Shown piece after piece: positions 36,909-46,126 of a stretch of 64,000 nucleotides of DNA. This DNA is from Bacteroidales bacterium (GTDB taxonomy: Bacteria > Bacteroidota > Bacteroidia > Bacteroidales > UBA7960). The notes beneath the pieces were generated by a model. The model saw nothing but the letters and a program-made list of their open reading frames with translations, was not told the origin of the DNA and did not search any database. The stretch is from contig SKRM01000024.1 of NCBI GenBank assembly GCA_007118495.1, positions 76,631-140,630 on the forward strand. Reading direction: 5' to 3'. Position numbers and translations under genes: made by a program. Every line of letters starts with the position of its first letter. Within the stretch, counting starts at the first letter, position 1.

Positions 36909-38276
36909 ATGGAAACCCTGCTTATTGTAATTACACTGATTCTTGTAATATTGATACTGCTGCTCACCTTGCTTAGACAAGTGAAGCCTGGAAAAGAACA
37001 AGAACTTACCGGACAATTGCAAGAATTGCAGCGAATACTTAACAGACTTGAGACAGGGCTTAAAGACGAATTCCGCACCAATAGAGAGGAAAACGCAGGG
37101 ATTGCCAAAGACAACCGGATGGAACTTGGTCAGGCGCTTGAACGCATTGGGAAAGAGATACGGGAAACACTCAAAGAGCTTACCGAACAAGCCCAAAAAG
37201 ACAGTACACAGATGAGGGAGTCGCTTGAAAAAGCATTTAAGGGCTTTCAGGAAACCTTTGATAAAAATGTGGAGTCATTTAATACCCTTCAGCGGGAAAA
37301 GTTCGGGAAAATGGAAGAAGCCCAACTAAAGCTCATTGAAGGCACAGAAAAAAAGTTGGAGGCCATGCGTGCCACAGTGGACGAAAAGCTTCAGAAAACA
37401 CTCAATGAACGTTTGGGTCAATCATTTGAAACAGTGAGCAAACAGCTGCTTGCGGTACAGGCCGGACTTGGCGAAATGAGAACCCTGGCCAGTGATGTTG
37501 GCGGACTGAAAAAGGTACTTAGCAATGTCAAGATGCGCGGAGGAATCGGTGAAGTGCAACTTTCCATGTTACTGGAGCAACTTCTGGCACCTGAACAATA
37601 TGAATCAAATGTGAAAACCAAAGAGGGTTCATCAGATATGGTAGAATTCGCTATTAAACTGCCCGGCCGCGAAGACAGTAATCAAAGTGTTTACCTGCCC
37701 ATTGACGCCAAGTTTCCCCGCGAATCATATGAACAGCTGGTGGATGCATATGATGGAAATGATCTGATAGTTATTGAAGCCGCAGGCAAGAATATGGAAC
37801 ATGTCATTAAGAAGATGGCCAAAGATATCCATGAAAAATATATAGATCCACCCAATACCACTGATTTTGCCATTATGTTCCTGCCCTTCGAAGGCATTTA
37901 TGCAGAGGTGGTCAGGCGTGCCAGCTTGCTTGAGCAGCTTCAACGCGACTACAAAGTGATCGTTACCGGCCCCACCACCCTGGCAGCCATCCTGAACAGC
38001 CTGCAAATGGGTTTCAGGACGCTGACCATTCAAAAACGAAGCAGCGAGGTATGGAAAATTCTTGGAGCAGTGAAAAAAGAATTTGAGAAATTTGGAGGCA
38101 TGCTTGACAAAGCCCAGAAAAACCTGCATACAGCAAGTGATCAGCTTGACGAGGTAATCGGACGGCGTACACGGGCAATTACCAGAACCCTGAAAAGCGT
38201 AGAAAGTCTGTCTGAACAAGAAACCCGCAAGCTGCTTCCTGAATTTCAGGATGATGAAGATGAGGATAATACCTAA
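36909..38276 (+). CDS. rmuC: DNA recombination protein RmuC
   Basis: N-terminal TM helix, long coiled coil, and a C-terminal RmuC nuclease-like domain (RGGIGEVQL, VEFAIKLP, LPIDAKFP, MFLPFEGIY). Confidence 0.85.
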   Translation: METLLIVITLILVILILLLTLLRQVKPGKEQELTGQLQELQRILNRLETGLKDEFRTNREENAGIAKDNRMELGQALERIGKEIRETLKELTEQAQKDSTQMRESLEKAFKGFQETFDKNVESFNTLQREKFGKMEEAQLKLIEGTEKKLEAMRATVDEKLQKTLNERLGQSFETVSKQLLAVQAGLGEMRTLASDVGGLKKVLSNVKMRGGIGEVQLSMLLEQLLAPEQYESNVKTKEGSSDMVEFAIKLPGREDSNQSVYLPIDAKFPRESYEQLVDAYDGNDLIVIEAAGKNMEHVIKKMAKDIHEKYIDPPNTTDFAIMFLPFEGIYAEVVRRASLLEQLQRDYKVIVTGPTTLAAILNSLQMGFRTLTIQKRSSEVWKILGAVKKEFEKFGGMLDKAQKNLHTASDQLDEVIGRRTRAITRTLKSVESLSEQETRKLLPEFQDDEDEDNT

Positions 38277-39163
38277 GCAACAGGTTTTCTCATCCGTAAA
38301 AACAGATTGATTCCCAGCTCTTCACTGAGTACATCTGTCATCTGGGCGGGGACACCTGCCTGGCTTGCAAATCTCAACAATTCATCTTCAGATCGGTGAT
38401 ATAAAAACCAGTCACCCAGCACTTCCATAATCTTACGTGACGGATTTTGGGTGTTGAAATTTCCGATGACCATTTGTCCTCCCGGTGACACGTACTCATA
38501 ATACCTTTTGATTAGGAAAACAAAATGTTTGTCTTTGAAATAGTCAAACAAGCCTGCGCTCCAGATAAGGTCATAGCTTGAATCAGATGAAAACCGGATG
38601 GCATTTCTGTTGAAGAAACGCAGATAGTCAATATAAGCCTGATTCTTTTTTGAGGCATAATCTATGGCACGCTGATCAAGGTCAACCAGGTCAAAATGCA
38701 GATAATTCTCATCAGTTTGCCTGAAATATTCATTGACCTCTGTCATAGGTCCGCTACCCAAAATAAGCACCCTGCGTTTTTCACCATTTGCAGCATCATT
38801 CAAGCTAGTGAGCATTTCTATGGCCAGTTTCTTTCTGTTCACGACAGCTTTTGCAGCTGGCAGCAGGTGAAAAAACTCATCCCATTTACGATAACGTGGA
38901 TCAGGGCTCGCATAATGCTGGTAGATCTTCTCAATAATGAAGAAGTCTCCATTGTAACCGAAGGGTTTGGTATAAGAAAAGCCAATGATGGTTCCGGGGT
39001 TGAGAATTGGCTCCATGGCTTTCCGAAAAGACTCGATATGTTCAGGCTTCAGGCTATCGATAATGTTGAGAACAGTCTCAAAGTCGCCGGGATCCGGACC
39101 GTTTTTGGCAAATATTTCCTCAAGGTAGGCGTCTGGGGGTATAGTTTCCTGGGTCTGCTTCAT
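38273..39163 (-). CDS. Class I SAM-dependent methyltransferase with ~130-aa N-terminal extension (possible PhcB-like small-molecule MTase)
   Basis: Motif I (RVLILGSGPMTE), acidic beta-2 end (DLVDLD), post-I/II (YDLIWSAGLFDYF) and SPGGQMVIGNF. The N-terminal segment has KPFGYNGDFFIIEKIY. It is the last gene of the two-component operon, 3 nt after the LytTR regulator. Confidence 0.75.
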   Translation of the reverse strand: MKQTQETIPPDAYLEEIFAKNGPDPGDFETVLNIIDSLKPEHIESFRKAMEPILNPGTIIGFSYTKPFGYNGDFFIIEKIYQHYASPDPRYRKWDEFFHLLPAAKAVVNRKKLAIEMLTSLNDAANGEKRRVLILGSGPMTEVNEYFRQTDENYLHFDLVDLDQRAIDYASKKNQAYIDYLRFFNRNAIRFSSDSSYDLIWSAGLFDYFKDKHFVFLIKRYYEYVSPGGQMVIGNFNTQNPSRKIMEVLGDWFLYHRSEDELLRFASQAGVPAQMTDVLSEELGINLFLRMRKPVA

Positions 39164-39166
39164 AGC

Positions 39167-39919
39167 CTATTTATTCAGCATGGCTTCCAACAGCTCACGG
39201 TGTTCTTCATCCACAGTAATTACCGTCATTTTATCTGCCATGATTAGTTCAGGATACTTGGCGATAAATACCTTATCCAGGTTAATGATGTAATCAACAC
39301 TCACACGCACAAAGGTATCTTCAGGTAATTTTTTCTCGACATTATCGAGGCTGTCATGAATAACCAGGTCATTGTCCCGAAGGTAAACACGACAGTTTTC
39401 ATCTTCCTGCTCCAGGTAATACACATTGGGCAGATTGATCTTTTCAAGGCCCTTTGCCCCTTCGAGGATTAATTGGTTTTTCACCTTTGAACTAGCCTTG
39501 AAAAAAGTGTTGAACTGGTCACTTTCCATCTTTGATTTAATGTCATTCTCAAATTTATACCTCGCAATTTCTATGTTGGTTTGCAGGTCTTTCTCTGAAA
39601 ATGGTTTAATGATATACCCATAGGGAAGTGATATCTTGGCTTTTTCAATGGTTGCCACATCGGCGTTGGCTGTAAGAAATATCACAGGCACATCATGCTT
39701 CTGCCCAATAATGGTAGCTGCTTCGATACCGGTCATGTCGCCCTTCAGGATAATGTCCATCAGGATAAGATCGGGTAATTGCTTTTCAACCTCTTCAATG
39801 GCGTCCTTTCCCGAAGCCACCGTGTTCTGCACCGTGTACCCCAGGCTCAGCAAACTCTCTTCGATGTCTGCGGCCACAAGAAATTCATCTTCAACCACAA
39901 GGATGTTCAAATTGCTCAT
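39167..39919 (-). CDS. Response regulator, REC + LytTR DNA-binding domain
   Basis: Receiver (ILVVEDE, LILMDIIL, IIKPF) and a C-terminal LytTR-like domain (YYLEQEDENCRVYL...FVRVSVDYIINLDKV). Confidence 0.8.
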   Translation of the reverse strand: MSNLNILVVEDEFLVAADIEESLLSLGYTVQNTVASGKDAIEEVEKQLPDLILMDIILKGDMTGIEAATIIGQKHDVPVIFLTANADVATIEKAKISLPYGYIIKPFSEKDLQTNIEIARYKFENDIKSKMESDQFNTFFKASSKVKNQLILEGAKGLEKINLPNVYYLEQEDENCRVYLRDNDLVIHDSLDNVEKKLPEDTFVRVSVDYIINLDKVFIAKYPELIMADKMTVITVDEEHRELLEAMLNK

Positions 39920-39931
39920 ATACCAGTATTA

Positions 39932-40990
39932 TTAAATCTTAAAATGAATATCGTATTTTGTTCCGTTTGAAAAATCATACTCCAATTTACCGTCAATTTG
40001 CTGGACGAGCTTAAAAACGATGCGCATACCCAGCGATCTGGATGCTTTTATATCAAAATCAGGCTCCATGCCCTTGCCATTATCGGCTACCTGCAACACA
40101 AATTCTTTTCTCCCCTTATTAAGGAGAGCAATCCTGATTACTCCTTCACCATTCTCCTTAAATGCATGCTTAAACGCATTGGATATAAGCTCATTGATGA
40201 TCAATCCGCATGGTATACCAATATCGAGCGGCAGATATACATCGGCCACCTCATATTCAAACCTGACTTGATGTTGAATATCGTAATACGTTCTTGACAG
40301 ATTGCCTGCAAGACTTTTTACATAATTTGAAAACTGAATATTGGCCAGGTTTTCATGCTGATACAGGTTTTCGTGGATAAGCGCCATTGACCGGATGCGG
40401 TTTCGGCTTTCAGCAAGTACAGTACGAAGCTTCTCATCCTCAACCAGGCGTTCCTGCATGGTCAGAATGCTTGAAATAATCTGCATATTGTTTTTTACAC
40501 GGTGATGTACCTCTTTAAGCAGCACATCCTTTTCGTCGAGAGACCTTTTGAGGTTCTTTTCAGCCACACGTCTTCTGATCTCCTTCTCGGCCAGGGCCTT
40601 TTTAAGCAGAATATTGCCTGCCAACTGGTCAATTAGGGCATAGAGCCTGACCGGATCTACCGGTTTGATCAGGTAACCATTCACGCCCAGGTTGATGGCA
40701 TCAAGAAAATATTCTTTAACACTATAAGCCGACATAACTATAACCTGCACATCATCTGAAAGCTTCTTGATCTCTCTGATCATATCAAGACCGTTCATGA
40801 TGGGCATGCTGATATCGGTAATGATCAGGTCAGGATTTTTAGCCTTGAATTTCTCCAGGCCTTCTTGTCCGTTCTCAGCAACATAGAAGGTTTCTACACG
40901 TTTTCTTAGGCGCTTTTCATACAGACTGCGAATGGTATCATTATCTTCGACAAAAAGAAGTGTAATCTGGTGGGGGAGGATCTGATCCAT
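39932..40990 (-). CDS. Receiver-histidine kinase fusion (REC-HisKA_2-HATPase_c)
   Basis: N-terminal receiver (LLFVEDN, LIITDISMP, LIKP), HisKA_2 H-box (EVHHRVKNNMQIISS), N box (ELISNAFKHAF) and G box (DNGKGM). Confidence 0.85.
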   Translation of the reverse strand: MDQILPHQITLLFVEDNDTIRSLYEKRLRKRVETFYVAENGQEGLEKFKAKNPDLIITDISMPIMNGLDMIREIKKLSDDVQVIVMSAYSVKEYFLDAINLGVNGYLIKPVDPVRLYALIDQLAGNILLKKALAEKEIRRRVAEKNLKRSLDEKDVLLKEVHHRVKNNMQIISSILTMQERLVEDEKLRTVLAESRNRIRSMALIHENLYQHENLANIQFSNYVKSLAGNLSRTYYDIQHQVRFEYEVADVYLPLDIGIPCGLIINELISNAFKHAFKENGEGVIRIALLNKGRKEFVLQVADNGKGMEPDFDIKASRSLGMRIVFKLVQQIDGKLEYDFSNGTKYDIHFKI

Positions 40991-41014
40991 AACAGGAATA
41001 TCTCAGATTGATGA

Positions 41015-42880
41015 TTATAAATATCTGGCTATGAGTTGCAGAAATTCGTTAACATTAAAAGGCTTGGCGATGTAGTCATTGCATCCGGATTCCTGGCTTT
41101 TCTCCCTGTCACCATCCATGGCATATGAAGTCTGGGCAATGACTGGAATATCAGGACGGACCTCTTTAATCAGTTTAGTGGCTGTATACCCGTCCATGAC
41201 AGGCATCCTGACATCCATAAGAACAAGGTCAATTTGTTGTTCTTTTTTACATTCATCCAGGGCTTCTTGCCCGTTCTTTGCCCATATAAGCGAAACATCT
41301 GTTTTGCGTAGTGCAGTTTTAATTAACAGGTAATTGGTGGCAACATCCTCTGCAACCAGGATTACTTTGTTTTTCCAGTTGAAGTTCATTTCAGAAGGCT
41401 TTATGGAAAAATTCTTAAAAATAGATTGATCTCCCTGTAAAAAGGGAATTGTAAAACTAAAGACAGAGCCACCTGGGTAATTGCTCTCAACCCAAATCTC
41501 ACCTCCAAGCAACTGTACAAATGCTTTTGAAATGGCAAGGCCCAAACCCGAACCTTCAAACTTGGGTTGATGATCAATGGTGGCTTGCATAAAGCGGTCA
41601 AAAATGACCTCCTGCTGCTCCCTTGGGATTCCTGTCCCTGTGTCTTTCACATAAAACAACAGGTCTTCTTTATGCACAGTGTAGCCAATCTCAACAAAGC
41701 CATTACTGGTAAATTTCATGGCATTGCTGGTGAGGTTGATCAAAATCTGCTTTAAACGTGTCCGGTCTGAAGTAATAACGGCATCCACACCGGAAAGACT
41801 GCATCTTAATTTCAGTTTAACACGTTTTTCAAGCACCTTGTGATTGCTTTTAAACATGTTGTGAACCTCATCAAGGAGGGCATTTAGTGAGAATTCGCTA
41901 TGGTTTACCGATAACATTCCCACCTCAATCTTCGACAAATCTATGATATCATTGATAAGTTCAAGCAAATGATTTCCGTTCCTGTTGATTACCTCCACAA
42001 ACTCCCGCCTTTCTTCTTCGTCTTCTGCCTCAAGCAGTAGTTGTGAGAAACCCAGGATACCATTCATGGGAGTTCTGATTTCATGGCTCATATTGGCCAG
42101 AAAGGCTGACTTCAGTTTATCAGATTGTTCTGCCCTTTCTTTTGCTTCTTTGAGCTGAGACGTTCTTTCATCGACTTTTATCTCCAGGGTCTTATTCACC
42201 TCCTCAACTTCTTCCTTACGCTTATCAAGTTCATTATTAAGAAAGAAATCTCTTCGGGCAAAATATTCGATGTTATAGGAAGCAAACATCCCAATGATAT
42301 TGGCCGAAACATAAAAGAAATTGTTGTTGATGATGAGTTCAAGTGGAGCATCAGAAAGCAAAAATGCACCGGCGTTGTATATAATGAGGTTGAACCATCC
42401 CGCAATGGCGGCAAGAAAAAACCGTAGCTTGATAAAAAAATACCCGGCAAAGAACACCAGCATCAACCCGCCGTAATATGCATGGTTTTCAGGGACTACA
42501 ACCAACATGGCACTTATTCCTGTTCCGGCAACAATAAAGGAAAGAAACAAAAGCCCTTGCCATATATTTTTAAAAAGAGGGAAAAACGAAAGGAATAAAA
42601 CGATCAGAAGTACTGGTATGACAATACCAAAACGAATGATCATAAAAGCCTCCCTCAGGTCAGGAACCATCACTGAGTCAAGCACACCGAACAACCCGTA
42701 CAATATGGCAACCAGCACAAATGCCACACGGAAATGCACCAGGGAGTCAGCAAAGTATTTTGACAAAAACACCTTTTCCTGATCGTCCCTGAAAGATAGC
42801 GTATACGGGTTTAATTGCATAGATATAATCTTGCGTGGGAAACCATTAAGAAAAGCCCCGGCAAGACGATTGTTGTTCAT
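41015..42880 (-). CDS. Membrane hybrid sensor histidine kinase (multi-TM sensor, HisKA-HATPase_c-REC)
   Basis: About 6 TM helices, a coiled coil, H-box (MSHEIRTPMNG), N/G boxes and a C-terminal receiver (LVLMDVRMP). The start was set to ATG 42880 because a TAnnTTTG box lies at 42913-42920. The ORF track start at 42943 is an alternative. Confidence 0.85.
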   Translation of the reverse strand: MNNNRLAGAFLNGFPRKIISMQLNPYTLSFRDDQEKVFLSKYFADSLVHFRVAFVLVAILYGLFGVLDSVMVPDLREAFMIIRFGIVIPVLLIVLFLSFFPLFKNIWQGLLFLSFIVAGTGISAMLVVVPENHAYYGGLMLVFFAGYFFIKLRFFLAAIAGWFNLIIYNAGAFLLSDAPLELIINNNFFYVSANIIGMFASYNIEYFARRDFFLNNELDKRKEEVEEVNKTLEIKVDERTSQLKEAKERAEQSDKLKSAFLANMSHEIRTPMNGILGFSQLLLEAEDEEERREFVEVINRNGNHLLELINDIIDLSKIEVGMLSVNHSEFSLNALLDEVHNMFKSNHKVLEKRVKLKLRCSLSGVDAVITSDRTRLKQILINLTSNAMKFTSNGFVEIGYTVHKEDLLFYVKDTGTGIPREQQEVIFDRFMQATIDHQPKFEGSGLGLAISKAFVQLLGGEIWVESNYPGGSVFSFTIPFLQGDQSIFKNFSIKPSEMNFNWKNKVILVAEDVATNYLLIKTALRKTDVSLIWAKNGQEALDECKKEQQIDLVLMDVRMPVMDGYTATKLIKEVRPDIPVIAQTSYAMDGDREKSQESGCNDYIAKPFNVNEFLQLIARYL

Positions 42881-42912
42881 GGTTAAACAGCTGCACTTAT
42901 TAACAGTCAAAA

Positions 42913-42920
42913 CAAAAATA
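42913..42920 (-). promoter_or_regulatory. Candidate -7 box (TAnnTTTG) for the kinase/LytTR/methyltransferase operon
   Basis: The minus strand reads TATTTTTG, 33 nt upstream of ATG 42880. Confidence 0.35.
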
Positions 42921-42965
42921 AACCTTTTTGGTATATCATACACATTTATATCTATGTCTTTTTCC

Positions 42966-42973
42966 TAACTTTG
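42966..42973 (+). promoter_or_regulatory. Candidate -7 box (TAnnTTTG) for pnuC
   Basis: TAACTTTG lies 30 nt upstream of ATG 43004 and overlaps the TTG start used by the ORF track. Confidence 0.35.
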
Positions 42974-43003
42974 CCCCTCTTCTACAAGCCTAAACACATT
43001 GCT

Positions 43004-43669
43004 ATGATCGCTGCAGGGTTTTTTCAGTTGTTTTATGAGAATCTAATGGCAACCACCTGGCCAGAACTGGTGGCCGTCCTTTTTGGCATCCTGAGCGTCT
43101 GGTATGCACGTAAAGCCAATCTCCTGGTGTATCCCACAGGTATTGTCAGCACAACTATTTACATATACATCTGCTTCCAGATCCAGCTATATGCAGATAT
43201 GGGCATCAATATCTTTTATACCAGTATGAGTATATATGGATGGTATATATGGACCAGAAAAGACGACCAGAAAAGGGTAAGGCCCATTCGCTGGAACACA
43301 AAAAGACAACAGGCCGGAGGGTTGTTAATGATTCCGGTTCTGTATGTATTGATTTTTGGACTGATTTACCTTTTTAAGCAGGACGATACAGAGTACATGA
43401 ATTCATATATACCTTACGTCGACTCCTTCACCACCTCCATATTCCTTTTGGGAATGTGGTATATGGCGCGGAAAAAGATTGAAAATTGGATTTACTGGAT
43501 TGCAGGCAACATCATTTCCATTCCTCTGTATTTTATCAAGGGTCTGGTGTTTACCAGCTTTCAGTTCACTGTCTTTCTGATACTGGCCATCTTGGGATTG
43601 ATGCACTGGATCAAGCTATACAATGAAGGAAGGGCGAGGGAACAAAAGTTTATCGATGACCTTATTTAG
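43004..43669 (+). CDS. pnuC: Nicotinamide riboside transporter PnuC
   Basis: The polytopic protein has the PnuC-typical segment YARKANLLVYPTGIVSTTIYIYICFQIQLYADMGINIFYTSMSIYGWYIW. Confidence 0.8.
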   Translation: MIAAGFFQLFYENLMATTWPELVAVLFGILSVWYARKANLLVYPTGIVSTTIYIYICFQIQLYADMGINIFYTSMSIYGWYIWTRKDDQKRVRPIRWNTKRQQAGGLLMIPVLYVLIFGLIYLFKQDDTEYMNSYIPYVDSFTTSIFLLGMWYMARKKIENWIYWIAGNIISIPLYFIKGLVFTSFQFTVFLILAILGLMHWIKLYNEGRAREQKFIDDLI

Positions 43670-44247
43670 CTGTCCTGATCTTTGCTGCGTCTGTTAAACT
43701 GGTTCATGGTATTTGCTACTCCCTGCATCCCAAAACTTAGGGCCATTTCACAAGCCAGATCAATGCGGGGGTCAATAACTTCCATTTCATCAGGGGTCCA
43801 TTTTCCAAGGACAAACTGCGACTGAAAACCCATTGGGTATTCACTTCCAATACCAAAACGCAAGCGTGCAAATTGACTGGTCCCCAATGTCTCAATGATA
43901 TCTGTCAACCCATTATGTCCACCAGGACCTCCCTTTGGACGCATACGCAGGGTTCCGAGTGGCAAGGCAACATCATCAGTAACGACCAAAAGGTTGTCCA
44001 GTGCGATATTTTCTTTATTAAGCCAGTAAAGCACCGGCCTTCCGCTCCGGTTCATGAAAGTAGATGGTTTAAGCAAATAAAACACCCTTCCCTTGAACCG
44101 GAACGAGGCCAGATCACCATAACGTGCTGGTTGAAATACAGCCTTGTGCTTTAGGGCCAGACGGTCTGCCACCATAAAACCTATGTTATGGCGGGTATCG
44201 GCATAATCGGGGCCGATATTACCAAGTCCGGCAATAAGAAATCGCAT
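43666..44247 (-). CDS. pth: Peptidyl-tRNA hydrolase
   Basis: LIAGLGNIGPDYADTRHNIGF, the catalytic His region, and GHNGLTDI. Confidence 0.9.
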   Translation of the reverse strand: MRFLIAGLGNIGPDYADTRHNIGFMVADRLALKHKAVFQPARYGDLASFRFKGRVFYLLKPSTFMNRSGRPVLYWLNKENIALDNLLVVTDDVALPLGTLRMRPKGGPGGHNGLTDIIETLGTSQFARLRFGIGSEYPMGFQSQFVLGKWTPDEMEVIDPRIDLACEMALSFGMQGVANTMNQFNRRSKDQDS

Positions 44248-44256
44248 ACGATGGGT

Positions 44257-44916
44257 TTATTCCTCTTTGGGTGCTTCATCGCCGGCAGCAGGAGCTTCAG
44301 CATCTTCTGCTCCTTCTCCTTCTGCAGCCTCTTCTGTTTCGTCTTCGTCAGGATCAACAGCTGCCATCATGGCGGCCCTGGCTGATTTAACCATGACAAC
44401 TACTGCGTTTTCAGGATCCATAAAACGGATATTATCCATCATCAGCTGTTCTACAACAACTGAATCACCTATTTGGAGCTTTGAAATATTCACATCTATT
44501 TCAGCAGGCAAATCATCCGGAAGTGCCAGCACTTCAAGCTTACGACGTTTTATCTGCATCTTGCCACCTGCAATTACACCAGGACTGTTTCCGGAAACAC
44601 TGATGGGGATAGCCATTTTGACAGGCTTATCAGGAAAAATCTGCAGAAAATCAGCGTGCAGAATCTTATCAGTAACAGGATGAAACTGAATGTCCTGTAA
44701 AACTACATCCATGGTTTTTTTTCCAATGGTCAACTTCACAATACATGCATCGGGTGAATACACAATACCCTTAAAGCTTTTTTCAGATGTAAAGAACTGA
44801 ATTTGTTCCTTACCTCCATAAACAACACAGGGTACATTGCCTTCTCTGCGCAGGCGTTTTGCATCTTTTTTCCCTACGTTCTCTCGCGGAGAACCGCTCA
44901 TAGATACTTTTTTCAT
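44257..44916 (-). CDS. rplY: 50S ribosomal protein L25 / general stress protein Ctc
   Basis: RENVGKKDAKRLRREGNVPCVVYGG, a Ctc-form C-terminal domain and an acidic tail. The start was set to ATG 44916. Confidence 0.9.
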   Translation of the reverse strand: MKKVSMSGSPRENVGKKDAKRLRREGNVPCVVYGGKEQIQFFTSEKSFKGIVYSPDACIVKLTIGKKTMDVVLQDIQFHPVTDKILHADFLQIFPDKPVKMAIPISVSGNSPGVIAGGKMQIKRRKLEVLALPDDLPAEIDVNISKLQIGDSVVVEQLMMDNIRFMDPENAVVVMVKSARAAMMAAVDPDEDETEEAAEGEGAEDAEAPAAGDEAPKEE

Positions 44917-45023
44917 AAAATAAAAATTTGAATATGGCATGGGGTTAAACTATTTAACCCCTTAAAAACAGCCTGCAAAGGTAATACTTTAGGCTGAAAA
45001 ATAAAGCAAGATCTGCTTTAAAA

Positions 45024-45968
45024 TTACATTATTGTAGAGAACTCAAAATGAGAGCTTATTGATTCGTGGTTATGCACCCGCTGAATTACATCGGCAAAAA
45101 GTTTAGATGCCGTCAGAACAGTTACCTTGGGACATTCTTTTTTAAGGGGGATGGTATCTGATACAATCACCTCTTCAAATGCGCTGTTGGCTATACGGTC
45201 ATAGGCCTTTCCGCTGAATACGGGGTGGGTACATACAGCACGCACGCTGTTTGCGCCCTTTTCAAGCATCATATGGCAAGCCTTGGTAATAGACCCTGCT
45301 GTGTCAATAATATCATCCACCAACACAACGTCCTTGCCCTTGACGTCACCTATGAGCGTCATGCGCTCAACCTCATTGGCCTTGACTCTTTGCTTATAGC
45401 AGATCACCAGTTCGCTATTCAAAAATTTGGCATAAGCTCCTGCACGTCTTGTACCCCCTGTATCAGGAGAAGCCATGACCAGATTGGGAAGGTTCAGCTT
45501 CTTCAGGTAGGGAACAAACAGGGCCGAGGCATACATGTGGTCAACAGGCACATCAAAAAACCCCTGTATCTGGTCAGCATGTAAGTCCATGGTAATTATC
45601 CTGTTCACACCAGCTGCAGCTAAAAGGTTTGCGATTAGTTTTGCACCAATTGAAACCCGTGGCTTATCTTTTCTGTCTTGCCTTGCAAAACCAAAATAAG
45701 GGATAACGGCAACCACCTGTTTGGCTGATGCACGTCGGGCCGCATCAATCATAAGCAACAACTCCATCAGGTTGTCAGCCGGAGGCACAGTGCTTTGTAT
45801 AATAAACACATCATTCCCCCTGAGAGTTTCTTCGAATGAGGGTTGGAATTCACCATCGGCAAAATGCTGAACCAGCTCTTTACCAAGTGGTTTTCCATAA
45901 CTTTCCGAAATTTTTTCTGCCAGGGAGCGGGAAACCGAACCAGTGAAAATCTTAACGACTGAGGCCAT
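45024..45968 (-). CDS. prs: Ribose-phosphate pyrophosphokinase
   Basis: FADGEFQPSF, YFGFARQDRK, DLHADQIQGFF and the PRPP loop VLVDDIIDTAGS. The start was set to ATG 45968. Confidence 0.9.
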   Translation of the reverse strand: MASVVKIFTGSVSRSLAEKISESYGKPLGKELVQHFADGEFQPSFEETLRGNDVFIIQSTVPPADNLMELLLMIDAARRASAKQVVAVIPYFGFARQDRKDKPRVSIGAKLIANLLAAAGVNRIITMDLHADQIQGFFDVPVDHMYASALFVPYLKKLNLPNLVMASPDTGGTRRAGAYAKFLNSELVICYKQRVKANEVERMTLIGDVKGKDVVLVDDIIDTAGSITKACHMMLEKGANSVRAVCTHPVFSGKAYDRIANSAFEEVIVSDTIPLKKECPKVTVLTASKLFADVIQRVHNHESISSHFEFSTIM

Positions 45969-46087
45969 GGAATGGTTGTTTGGGAGAAATAAGACTAATA
46001 ATCTGACAAAAGTATGAATAATATCAGAACCGTATTGAGGGCTTTGGGTGAAATGCTTATTTTTTTTGTCAGATCCAATGAAATATT

Positions 46088-46095
46088 TACCTTTG
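46088..46095 (+). promoter_or_regulatory. Candidate -7 box (TAnnTTTG) for tRNA-Leu
   Basis: TACCTTTG lies 31 nt upstream of the tRNA 5' end. Confidence 0.35.
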
Positions 46096-46126
46096 CAACC
46101 CAGCAACAGCGCTTACATCATACTTT

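Follow-up and report, generated by a model that had tools for sequence, protein, structure and literature searches.

We have analysed a stretch of 64,000 nucleotides (nt) from a Bacteroidales bacterium (contig SKRM01000024.1, positions 76,631 to 140,630 of the forward strand), which is called the window below, and we focus on four adjacent genes on its minus strand. They encode a hybrid sensor histidine kinase, a second kinase with a receiver (REC) domain in front of its HisKA_2 core, a REC-LytTR response regulator and a class I S-adenosylmethionine (SAM)-dependent methyltransferase (Table 1). The gaps between the four open reading frames (ORFs), from the stop codon to the next start, are 24, 12 and 3 nt. 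In this respect the ORF coordinates bear out an initial annotation, which had described the genes as a tight minus-strand cluster and had likened them one to one to phcBSRQ, the quorum-sensing operon of Ralstonia solanacearum. Overall, the comparisons below make the operon a strong candidate for a chemical signalling system.

Table 1. Features of the operon in the window. Lengths are given in amino acids (aa).
Feature	Position	Strand	Basis or remark
Hybrid histidine kinase ORF, gene 1 of the operon	41015-42943	-	As called by the ORF lister (GTG start)
Hybrid sensor histidine kinase, 621 aa	41015-42880	-	Counted from ATG 42880
REC-HisKA_2-HATPase_c kinase, 352 aa, cytoplasmic	39932-40990	-	Pfam, NCBIfam
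REC-LytTR response regulator, 250 aa	39167-39919	-	Pfam
PhcB-core class I SAM-dependent methyltransferase, 296 aa	38273-39163	-	Pfam, AlphaFold2 model, homology
MASE8-like membrane sensor domain, approximately residues 30-215 of the 621-aa kinase	42236-42793	-	hhalign; PF20968.4 in relatives
TAnnTTTG box TATTTTTG (minus-strand reading), candidate promoter element	42913-42920	-	33 nt upstream of ATG 42880

In the product of gene 1, Pfam recognises HisKA, HATPase_c and a C-terminal REC domain behind a membrane region of about 230 aa. That is, the kinase consists of a multi-pass MASE8-type sensor, a coiled-coil linker, HisKA, HATPase_c and REC, and the phospho-acceptor motif SHEIRTP in its HisKA is intact, as are the receiver aspartates in the operon. 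The second kinase matches Response_reg (E 2.9e-26), HisKA_2 (E 1.3e-27) and HATPase_c (E 4.5e-10) in Pfam, its HisKA_2 domain retains the phospho-acceptor motif HHRVKNN, and its top NCBIfam match is the PhyK-type kinase model (E 2.2e-39). The third protein matches Response_reg (E 2.9e-21) and LytTR (E 2.8e-11), and its receiver is nearest to the PhyR-type receiver model of NCBIfam (E 1.8e-22). A PhyK-like kinase next to a PhyR-like receiver would fit a phosphorylation of the LytTR regulator by the HisKA_2 kinase, the REC-LytTR protein being the presumed transcriptional output.

The methyltransferase shows a weak and generic Pfam match, to Methyltransf_25 at residues 133-229. The motifs listed for it in the initial annotation (VLILGSGPMTE, DLVDLD, YDLIWSAGLFDYF and KPFGYNGDFFIIEKIY) are all present in the translation, and the N-terminal extension of about 130 aa proposed there has a counterpart in the AlphaFold2 (AF2) model (mean predicted local distance difference test score, pLDDT, 96.5; predicted TM-score, pTM, 0.92), where residues 10-124 are all-helical and the Rossmann fold begins at 130. 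This helical cap carries the sequence KPFGYNGDF. At E ≤0.01 Pfam gives no CheR match in the protein, and no CheR N-terminal domain is seen, in line with the earlier statement that the enzyme is not of the CheR type. Its close homologues, 60-93% identical, come from Bacteroidales-type metagenome genomes and are labelled class I methyltransferase by NCBI, while many homologues bear the JGI name 'extracellular factor (EF) 3-hydroxypalmitic acid methyl ester biosynthesis protein', i.e., the function of PhcB. A resemblance to PhcB at the database level is thus not new, as it is implicit in the JGI automatic names.

To relate the enzyme to PhcB itself, reference loci are needed. The best of 139 hits in a tblastn search of plasmids is a 468-aa methyltransferase on a Paraburkholderia graminis plasmid, where a kinase of 445 aa and two response regulators come next. 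This protein is 64-92% identical, over 94-100% of the length, to proteins of 444-522 aa from Paraburkholderia, Cupriavidus, Massilia and Janthinobacterium. The Cupriavidus locus, with a methyltransferase of 463 aa, a MASE8-HisKA-HATPase kinase of 443 aa, a REC-HisKA-HATPase protein of 381 aa and a REC protein of 332 aa, is phcBSRQ. Actually, C. necator JMP134 is reported to have a complete Phc system, with proteins 56-75% identical to the R. solanacearum Phc proteins, and a Cupriavidus strain appears to produce a form of the methyl ester of 3-hydroxypalmitic acid (3-OH PAME) (PMC2842291). Homologues of Phc proteins have also been reported for Paraburkholderia (PMC6989110), and the orthologues used here are tied to Ralstonia through these two studies.

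Against the P. graminis PhcB-like protein, the window enzyme aligns in BLASTP at 27% identity over 283 aa (E 3e-31), and against Cupriavidus PhcB at 25% over 270 aa (E 4e-25). A profile-profile comparison by hhalign with the PhcB clade of Cupriavidus and Paraburkholderia reaches 99.95% probability (E 2.9e-38, 233 columns), with residues 59-295 of the window enzyme matching PhcB 212-463. In addition, several conserved motifs outside the generic SAM motifs, namely KPxGYxGD in the cap, AGLFDY, NPxR..ME, W.L..R and GxN.F, are invariant or nearly so in both the Bacteroidota family and the PhcB clade. Eight residues never vary in the wider family alignment, and the PhcB clade has the same amino acid fixed at seven of them, the exception being D95, which is aligned with N249. 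By these alignments, the methyltransferase shares homology with the catalytic part of PhcB, i.e., with its C-terminal ~250-290 residues. Whether the closest relatives would be enzymes acting on rRNA, tRNA or protein had been raised in the initial annotation; by BLASTP, hhalign and Foldseek they are PhcB and small-molecule methyltransferases.

The sensor domain of the hybrid kinase has its counterpart in the same system. An orthologous kinase in a relative (locus L001), 68% identical, has a precomputed Pfam MASE8 match ahead of its HisKA-HATPase-REC part, and a precomputed MASE8 match is found in Cupriavidus PhcS too. With the N-terminal 219 residues of the window kinase as query, 21 proteins were retrieved. 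Most of the domain is covered in 15 of these (53-64% identical), of which 13 are assigned PF20968.4 (MASE8). We have also compared a profile of 74 Bacteroidota membrane domains with two PhcS N-termini by hhalign, which gave a probability of 96% (E 2.2e-9, 167 columns). When the coiled-coil linker is removed and the membrane part is taken alone, the match has E 3.2e-5 and a score of 38, compared with 11.7 for the reversed decoy and 22 for the best column shuffle. A BLASTP alignment of the whole hybrid kinase with a PhcS-type kinase is collinear, starting in the membrane domain and extending across the ATPase domain (25% identity, E 6e-20), and a hydropathy scan indicates at least four transmembrane (TM) segments in the MASE8 region. 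The model version PF20968.2 gave no match on the N-terminal domain of the window kinase even at E ≤10. This version also misses MASE8 in the L001 orthologue and in Cupriavidus PhcS, the precomputed tables using PF20968.4, and it detects the domain weakly (E 0.0044) in the Paraburkholderia PhcS-like kinase; since it misses proteins with PF20968.4 matches, Cupriavidus PhcS included, its negatives are unreliable for MASE8. Judging from the profile comparison, the hybrid kinase and PhcS have homologous sensor domains at their N-termini.

The two homologous parts are kept together across Bacteroidota. Scanning one genome per GTDB species has yielded 80 loci, all from Bacteroidota, whose methyltransferases are 44-69% identical to that of the window, and these loci were classified by ORF calling and BLAST with domain-specific queries. 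The arrangement of the window, i.e., MASE8 hybrid kinase, REC-HisKA_2 kinase, REC-LytTR regulator and methyltransferase, is found in 43 loci (type A), and two further loci, scored as 'other', have matching spacing. Eight loci (type B) have a MASE8-PAS hybrid kinase directly followed by the methyltransferase, and 20 (type C) have the methyltransferase first, then a MASE8 hybrid kinase and a single-domain receiver, which is the phcB-phcS order; the gaps in type C are mostly 0-90 nt, with two of ~340 nt. The remaining seven loci are uninformative, with contig ends ≤3.3 kb upstream, and six of them keep the adjoining type A genes. That is, the methyltransferase is clustered with a MASE8 kinase in 73 of the 73 informative species loci, and chance adjacency of enzyme and kinase is rejected on this ground. 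The survey of synteny suggested in the initial annotation has thus turned out in favour of a conserved linkage, with at least 43 of the 80 species loci keeping the same four genes in the same order.

Types B and C lack the REC-HisKA_2 relay kinase. Compared with the window, their membrane domains are 38-50% identical while the kinase cores are only 23-37% identical, which is the reverse of the usual pattern. Because the membrane domain is better conserved than the kinase core in these types, what stays constant beside the enzyme is the sensor domain and not the whole kinase. In type B relatives (L059, 8901-15486), the next gene after the methyltransferase on the same strand encodes a protein of 567 aa that weakly matches an outer-membrane beta-barrel, and a 1596-aa ORF comes behind it. 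A full-text literature search has found no paper linking phcB with Bacteroidetes in this sense, and the conserved pairing with MASE8 kinases and the three architectures appear undescribed.

On the side of the enzyme, the family is much wider than the linked clade. A HMMER scan of 1.84 billion representatives has returned 4857 clusters (clustered at 50% identity) at E ≤0.001, of which 509 are at E ≤1e-30. The matches normally span the entire unit of ~280 aa including the cap, and most members have ~300 aa. By this measure, the methyltransferase belongs to a large family of ~300-aa enzymes, and PhcB is a member with an N-terminal extension. Among longer members there are fusions to KAS III (FabH-like; on either side), acyl-CoA dehydrogenase, acyl carrier protein (ACP), PilZ, AraC-type helix-turn-helix (HTH) or HTH_3 domains (examples P0182, P0237, P0196, P0260, P0186, P0199 and P0232, and the plasmid hits H2/H3), and on an Enterobacter ludwigii plasmid a member forms a domain within a type I polyketide synthase (PKS). 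So varied a set of fusion partners suggests that the family is broad and for the most part unstudied, that its enzymes modify acyl or polyketide compounds, and that some members have a direct regulatory role. On a Deinococcus actinosclerus plasmid (L090, 1847-5205), a member ends a same-strand run that starts with a fatty-acid desaturase; its label 'chemotaxis protein CheR' is probably a mis-annotation. On a plasmid of the cyanobacterium Pseudanabaena sp. PCC 7367 (L086, 5893-8512), the gene of a member is arranged tail-to-tail with those of a HAMP histidine kinase and a response regulator, beside a Tn3 transposase. This case hints that the pairing of enzyme and kinase, and its mobility, may extend to other phyla.

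The structural comparisons agree with these fusions. Whether queried with the sequence alone or with a profile, the PDB sequences yielded no more than generic Rossmann matches (PEAMT, ToxA, NodS, 3ocj) and no solved structure of the family, and in NCBIfam the methyltransferase has no specific model, with BioC and NodS alone appearing, far below the cut-offs. In the Foldseek search of PDB with the AF2 model, the top match is 3ocj (E 1.7e-12, TM-score 0.63), an uncharacterised 'possible exported protein' of Bordetella parapertussis, followed by natural-product O- and C-methyltransferases (E ~1e-11 to 1e-10). SibL, Plu4890, DnrK, DtpM, SgvM and the C-methyltransferase domain of CurJ (C-MT) are small-molecule enzymes and, like the window enzyme, have a Rossmann fold capped by helices. 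On the other hand, sequence identity is 10-17% across the fold matches, none of those listed is PhcB or a structure of the family, and the substrate is not readable from 3ocj, SibL, Plu4890, DnrK, DtpM, SgvM or CurJ C-MT. Macromolecule methyltransferases appear only at the bottom of the list of PDB sequence matches, and none is among the fold matches listed. Fold neighbours and domain fusions in the sequences, together with the desaturase operon, therefore point to a small acyl substrate and not a macromolecule.

As to the start and the promoter of the operon, gene 1 likely begins at ATG 42880 rather than at GTG 42943, since a TAnnTTTG box lies upstream of this ATG and the alignment of the orthologue starts at residue 34 of the long version. 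The box had been pointed out in the initial annotation and is real, although the pattern is not enriched across the window (58 matches, compared with 54.7 expected from shuffles). Of 45 orthologous loci, 36 have such a box on the coding strand within the 150 nt that precede the kinase gene, where 0.084 matches per region are expected. Being positionally conserved among orthologous loci, the window box gains weight, and we take it as a candidate -7 element of a Bacteroidota-type promoter for the operon. In the upstream regions of the 45 loci, shared 7-mers do not exceed shuffles, and a crude scan of these 45 regions for LytTR-type direct repeats (9-mers at 18-24 nt spacing) gave 7.2 compared with 7.0 in shuffles. 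Scans for sigma-70-type promoters and terminators gave no more matches than shuffles did and were uninformative for the regions between the genes; Bacteroidota promoters are outside the reach of these scans.

The operon is flanked by a convergent RmuC-family gene (36909-38276, plus strand) and a divergent PnuC gene (~43046-43669, plus strand). With convergent and divergent neighbours, the four genes therefore form a bounded unit, and we infer that they are co-transcribed. The last four bases of the RmuC-family gene, stop codon included, overlap the stop codon of the methyltransferase (38273-38275), and no terminator-like hairpin was found between these two genes. The upstream flank (42971-46106), with pnuC, pth, ribosomal protein L25 and phosphoribosyl pyrophosphate (PRPP) synthetase, is syntenic with the relative L001 (1-2673; 66% identity). 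The downstream neighbour is RmuC in the window but Lumazine_bd_2/DUF2147 in L001, which also has two genes not seen in the window, one for a NUDIX protein and one, located between pnuC and the kinase, for a PDZ/hydrolase protein. The G+C content is ~0.42 over 38001-44000, 0.46-0.49 in the stretch before it, at 22-38 kb of the window, and 0.42-0.45 beyond 44 kb. A horizontally acquired island was considered and rejected: the drop in G+C is modest (0.42 compared with 0.47), the flank with pnuC, pth, L25 and prs is syntenic with the relative, and there is no clear island signal since the window beyond 44 kb is also low in G+C.

Based on the above analyses, we can compare the operon with phcBSRQ of Ralstonia solanacearum, Cupriavidus and Paraburkholderia as a whole. 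Both have a methyltransferase with the catalytic part of PhcB, a MASE8 membrane sensor in the first kinase or in PhcS, as far as architecture goes, a receiver fused to a histidine-kinase core in the relay kinase or in PhcR, and a further response regulator, with all genes in one operon; the type C relatives even keep the phcB-phcS order, i.e., enzyme then kinase. The differences are also clear. The host is a member of Bacteroidota and not of Betaproteobacteria; the sensor kinase is of the hybrid type, its C-terminal receiver having no counterpart in PhcS; the relay kinase has HisKA_2 where PhcR has HisKA; and the regulator is REC plus LytTR, whereas PhcQ has a receiver and an unassigned C-terminal domain, the receiver being all that Pfam shows in the Cupriavidus protein. 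Furthermore, Phc acts through the LysR protein PhcA while the output of the window operon is of the LytTR type, and no LysR gene (PhcA) was found within the operon, to which the search was confined. The gene order, which the initial annotation had already noted to differ from phc, is reversed in the window.

The one-to-one parallel drawn earlier is therefore to be narrowed. It stands for methyltransferase and PhcB and for sensor and PhcS, which are homologous, whereas the REC-kinase shares with PhcR the architecture only, and the LytTR regulator has only the receiver domain in common with PhcQ. Actually, the relay kinase is collinear with Cupriavidus PhcR at 18% identity (E 7e-9), a match carried by the REC and ATPase domains. 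In other words, the operon resembles phcBSRQ in its inventory, and as far as sequence comparison tells, the ancestry is common for two of its parts, namely the core of the synthase and the sensor domain. Because the operon contains no PhcB N-terminal domain, PhcQ-type regulator or PhcA, and because its relay kinase is of the HisKA_2 type and its sensor kinase a hybrid, it is not the phc operon, and we file it as a variant of the Phc kind.

Some other systems are worth comparing. In CqsA/CqsS of Vibrio and LqsA/LqsS of Legionella, the gene of an autoinducer synthase stands beside that of a kinase whose multi-pass membrane domain binds a hydrophobic acyl-derived signal. The window operon is like them in logic, with a putative synthase gene adjoining the gene of a membrane-sensor kinase; unlike its enzyme, CqsA and LqsA are pyridoxal phosphate (PLP)-dependent acyl-CoA transferases and not SAM methyltransferases, and their partner sensors are not of the MASE8 type. 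A final regulator of the REC plus LytTR type is the output typical of peptide quorum sensing in Firmicutes, as in AgrCA, ComDE and FsrCA. These systems, however, use peptide signals and HPK10-type kinases with membrane domains of their own, and they have strong autoregulatory direct repeats upstream, whereas none was found upstream of the window operon. To our knowledge, no chemical signalling system of the Phc kind has been described in Bacteroidota, and we know of few dedicated autoinducer synthase-receptor pairs described for this phylum.

The reading that we favour is that the operon encodes a Phc-type pair of signal synthase and receptor wired to a LytTR output, to which we would give a probability of about 55%. 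In this model, the 296-aa enzyme with the PhcB core would transfer a methyl group from SAM to an acyl compound that is small and hydrophobic. The carboxyl group of a (3-hydroxy) fatty acid is the most plausible target, and the product would be a membrane-permeant methyl ester. The MASE8 domain of the hybrid kinase would detect the ester inside the membrane, in the way that 3-OH PAME or 3-hydroxymyristic acid methyl ester (3-OH MAME) is detected by PhcS. The hybrid kinase would then signal to the receiver of the REC-HisKA_2 kinase, in a two-tier layout like that from PhcS to PhcR (PMC2842291, PMC10653808), and the REC-HisKA_2 kinase would phosphorylate the REC-LytTR regulator, whereby transcription would be altered. 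We infer in this way the substrate, the product and its role as the kinase ligand, the order of phosphotransfer, and the action between or within cells.

A number of points weigh against this model. The PhcB references are Cupriavidus and Paraburkholderia orthologues standing in for R. solanacearum PhcB, and the function of the clade is predicted from sequence comparison. The window enzyme has no equivalent of the N-terminal domain of PhcB (~175-210 aa) and aligns only from PhcB ~180-212 to 457-463, and at only 25-27% identity its substrate and product could differ from those of PhcB. Moreover, membership in the methyltransferase family alone does not imply signalling, since many members are not next to kinases; examples are found in Rhizobium (beside an EAL protein), Deinococcus (in the desaturase operon), Pantoea (with no signalling neighbour) and Enterobacter (in the PKS). 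With regard to the relay, Pfam reports no Hpt domain in the operon proteins, so that no acceptor is seen for the phosphate of the hybrid kinase's receiver, and the order of the relay is for this reason a guess. Finally, because no LytTR repeats stand out upstream, the positive autoregulation typical of quorum sensing is unsupported, although LytTR target sites may lie elsewhere than in the upstream region of the operon.

The last point would also suit the main rival, a private membrane or lipid feedback loop in one cell. Here the enzyme would modify a lipid or fatty-acid pool and the MASE8 kinase would monitor the membrane state or the product, with the relay adjusting gene expression, possibly that of lipid or envelope genes; the coupling would still be real, but it would serve homeostasis. 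MASE-type domains are largely embedded in the membrane, as are the at least four TM segments predicted in the window kinase, the enzyme comes from a family with links to the chemistry of fatty acids and polyketides, and the place of the type A enzyme as the last gene of a regulator operon suits an output enzyme too. We nevertheless regard such a loop as rather unlikely, considering that the only characterised pair with both homologous parts, PhcB and PhcS, works in diffusible quorum sensing (PMC10653808, PMC2842291), and that no conserved lipid-biosynthesis genes lie beside the cluster.

Two further explanations give the enzyme another target. It may inactivate or modify a foreign compound sensed by the kinases, e.g., an exogenous fatty acid or a toxin. 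Small-molecule methyltransferases often detoxify, TehB-type and generic methyltransferases are among the PDB profile matches, and the type A order of sensor, relay, regulator and enzyme resembles an inducible resistance operon. Such a role is improbable to us, as type C has the enzyme first and then the kinase, i.e., the phcB-phcS order, the enzyme is constitutively linked to the regulators and not placed in a separate target operon, and the characterised homologue PhcB is a signal synthase. Alternatively, the target might be a protein of the pathway, such as the kinase or a receiver, whose methylation would tune signalling, as in the methylation of chemoreceptors by CheR. Tight linkage to a kinase would fit this as well, some family members match the SAM-binding domain of CheR weakly in Pfam (E ~1e-4 to 1e-3), and one is annotated as CheR in the Deinococcus plasmid record. 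In the window protein, however, both the CheR match and the CheR N-terminal domain are absent, and che genes, cheB among them, and methyl-accepting chemotaxis protein (MCP) genes are not seen in the annotated neighbour lists. Together with the homology to PhcB, itself a small-molecule enzyme, the small-molecule methyltransferases among the fold neighbours and the family fusions to KAS III, ACP and PKS modules, this has led us to reject a CheR-like protein methylation, and we hold protein methylation in general to be very improbable.

Overall, the core of the Phc synthase and the Phc sensor domain form a strictly coupled pair in at least 73 species of Bacteroidota, and this methyltransferase-MASE8 pair is wired to different downstream relays in different lineages. 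The lineages include members of Lentimicrobiaceae, Prolixibacteraceae, Draconibacterium and Maribellus, as well as lineages labelled Bacteroides or Rikenellaceae. We suggest, tentatively and at somewhat less than even odds, that the PhcB-core methyltransferase and the MASE8 kinase are an ancient, mobile cassette of autoinducer synthase and receptor, which beyond Ralstonia, Cupriavidus and Paraburkholderia is active in many Bacteroidota. If so, Bacteroidota of sediments and digesters and those associated with the gut, environments where this phylum is important, would possess a quorum-sensing language of their own, with a lipid methyl ester as its basis. The product could differ from 3-OH PAME and 3-OH MAME, e.g., it could be an ester of the branched 3-hydroxy fatty acids common in Bacteroidota. 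The observation should be of note to specialists in quorum sensing or in Bacteroidota. If the proposed function holds, there would be a new class of signal to look for in anaerobic communities and a defined test case, the cluster being present in genera with cultured members (Draconibacterium, Maribellus), and the three architectures would offer a natural experiment on how one sensor-synthase cassette has been re-plugged into different phosphorelays.

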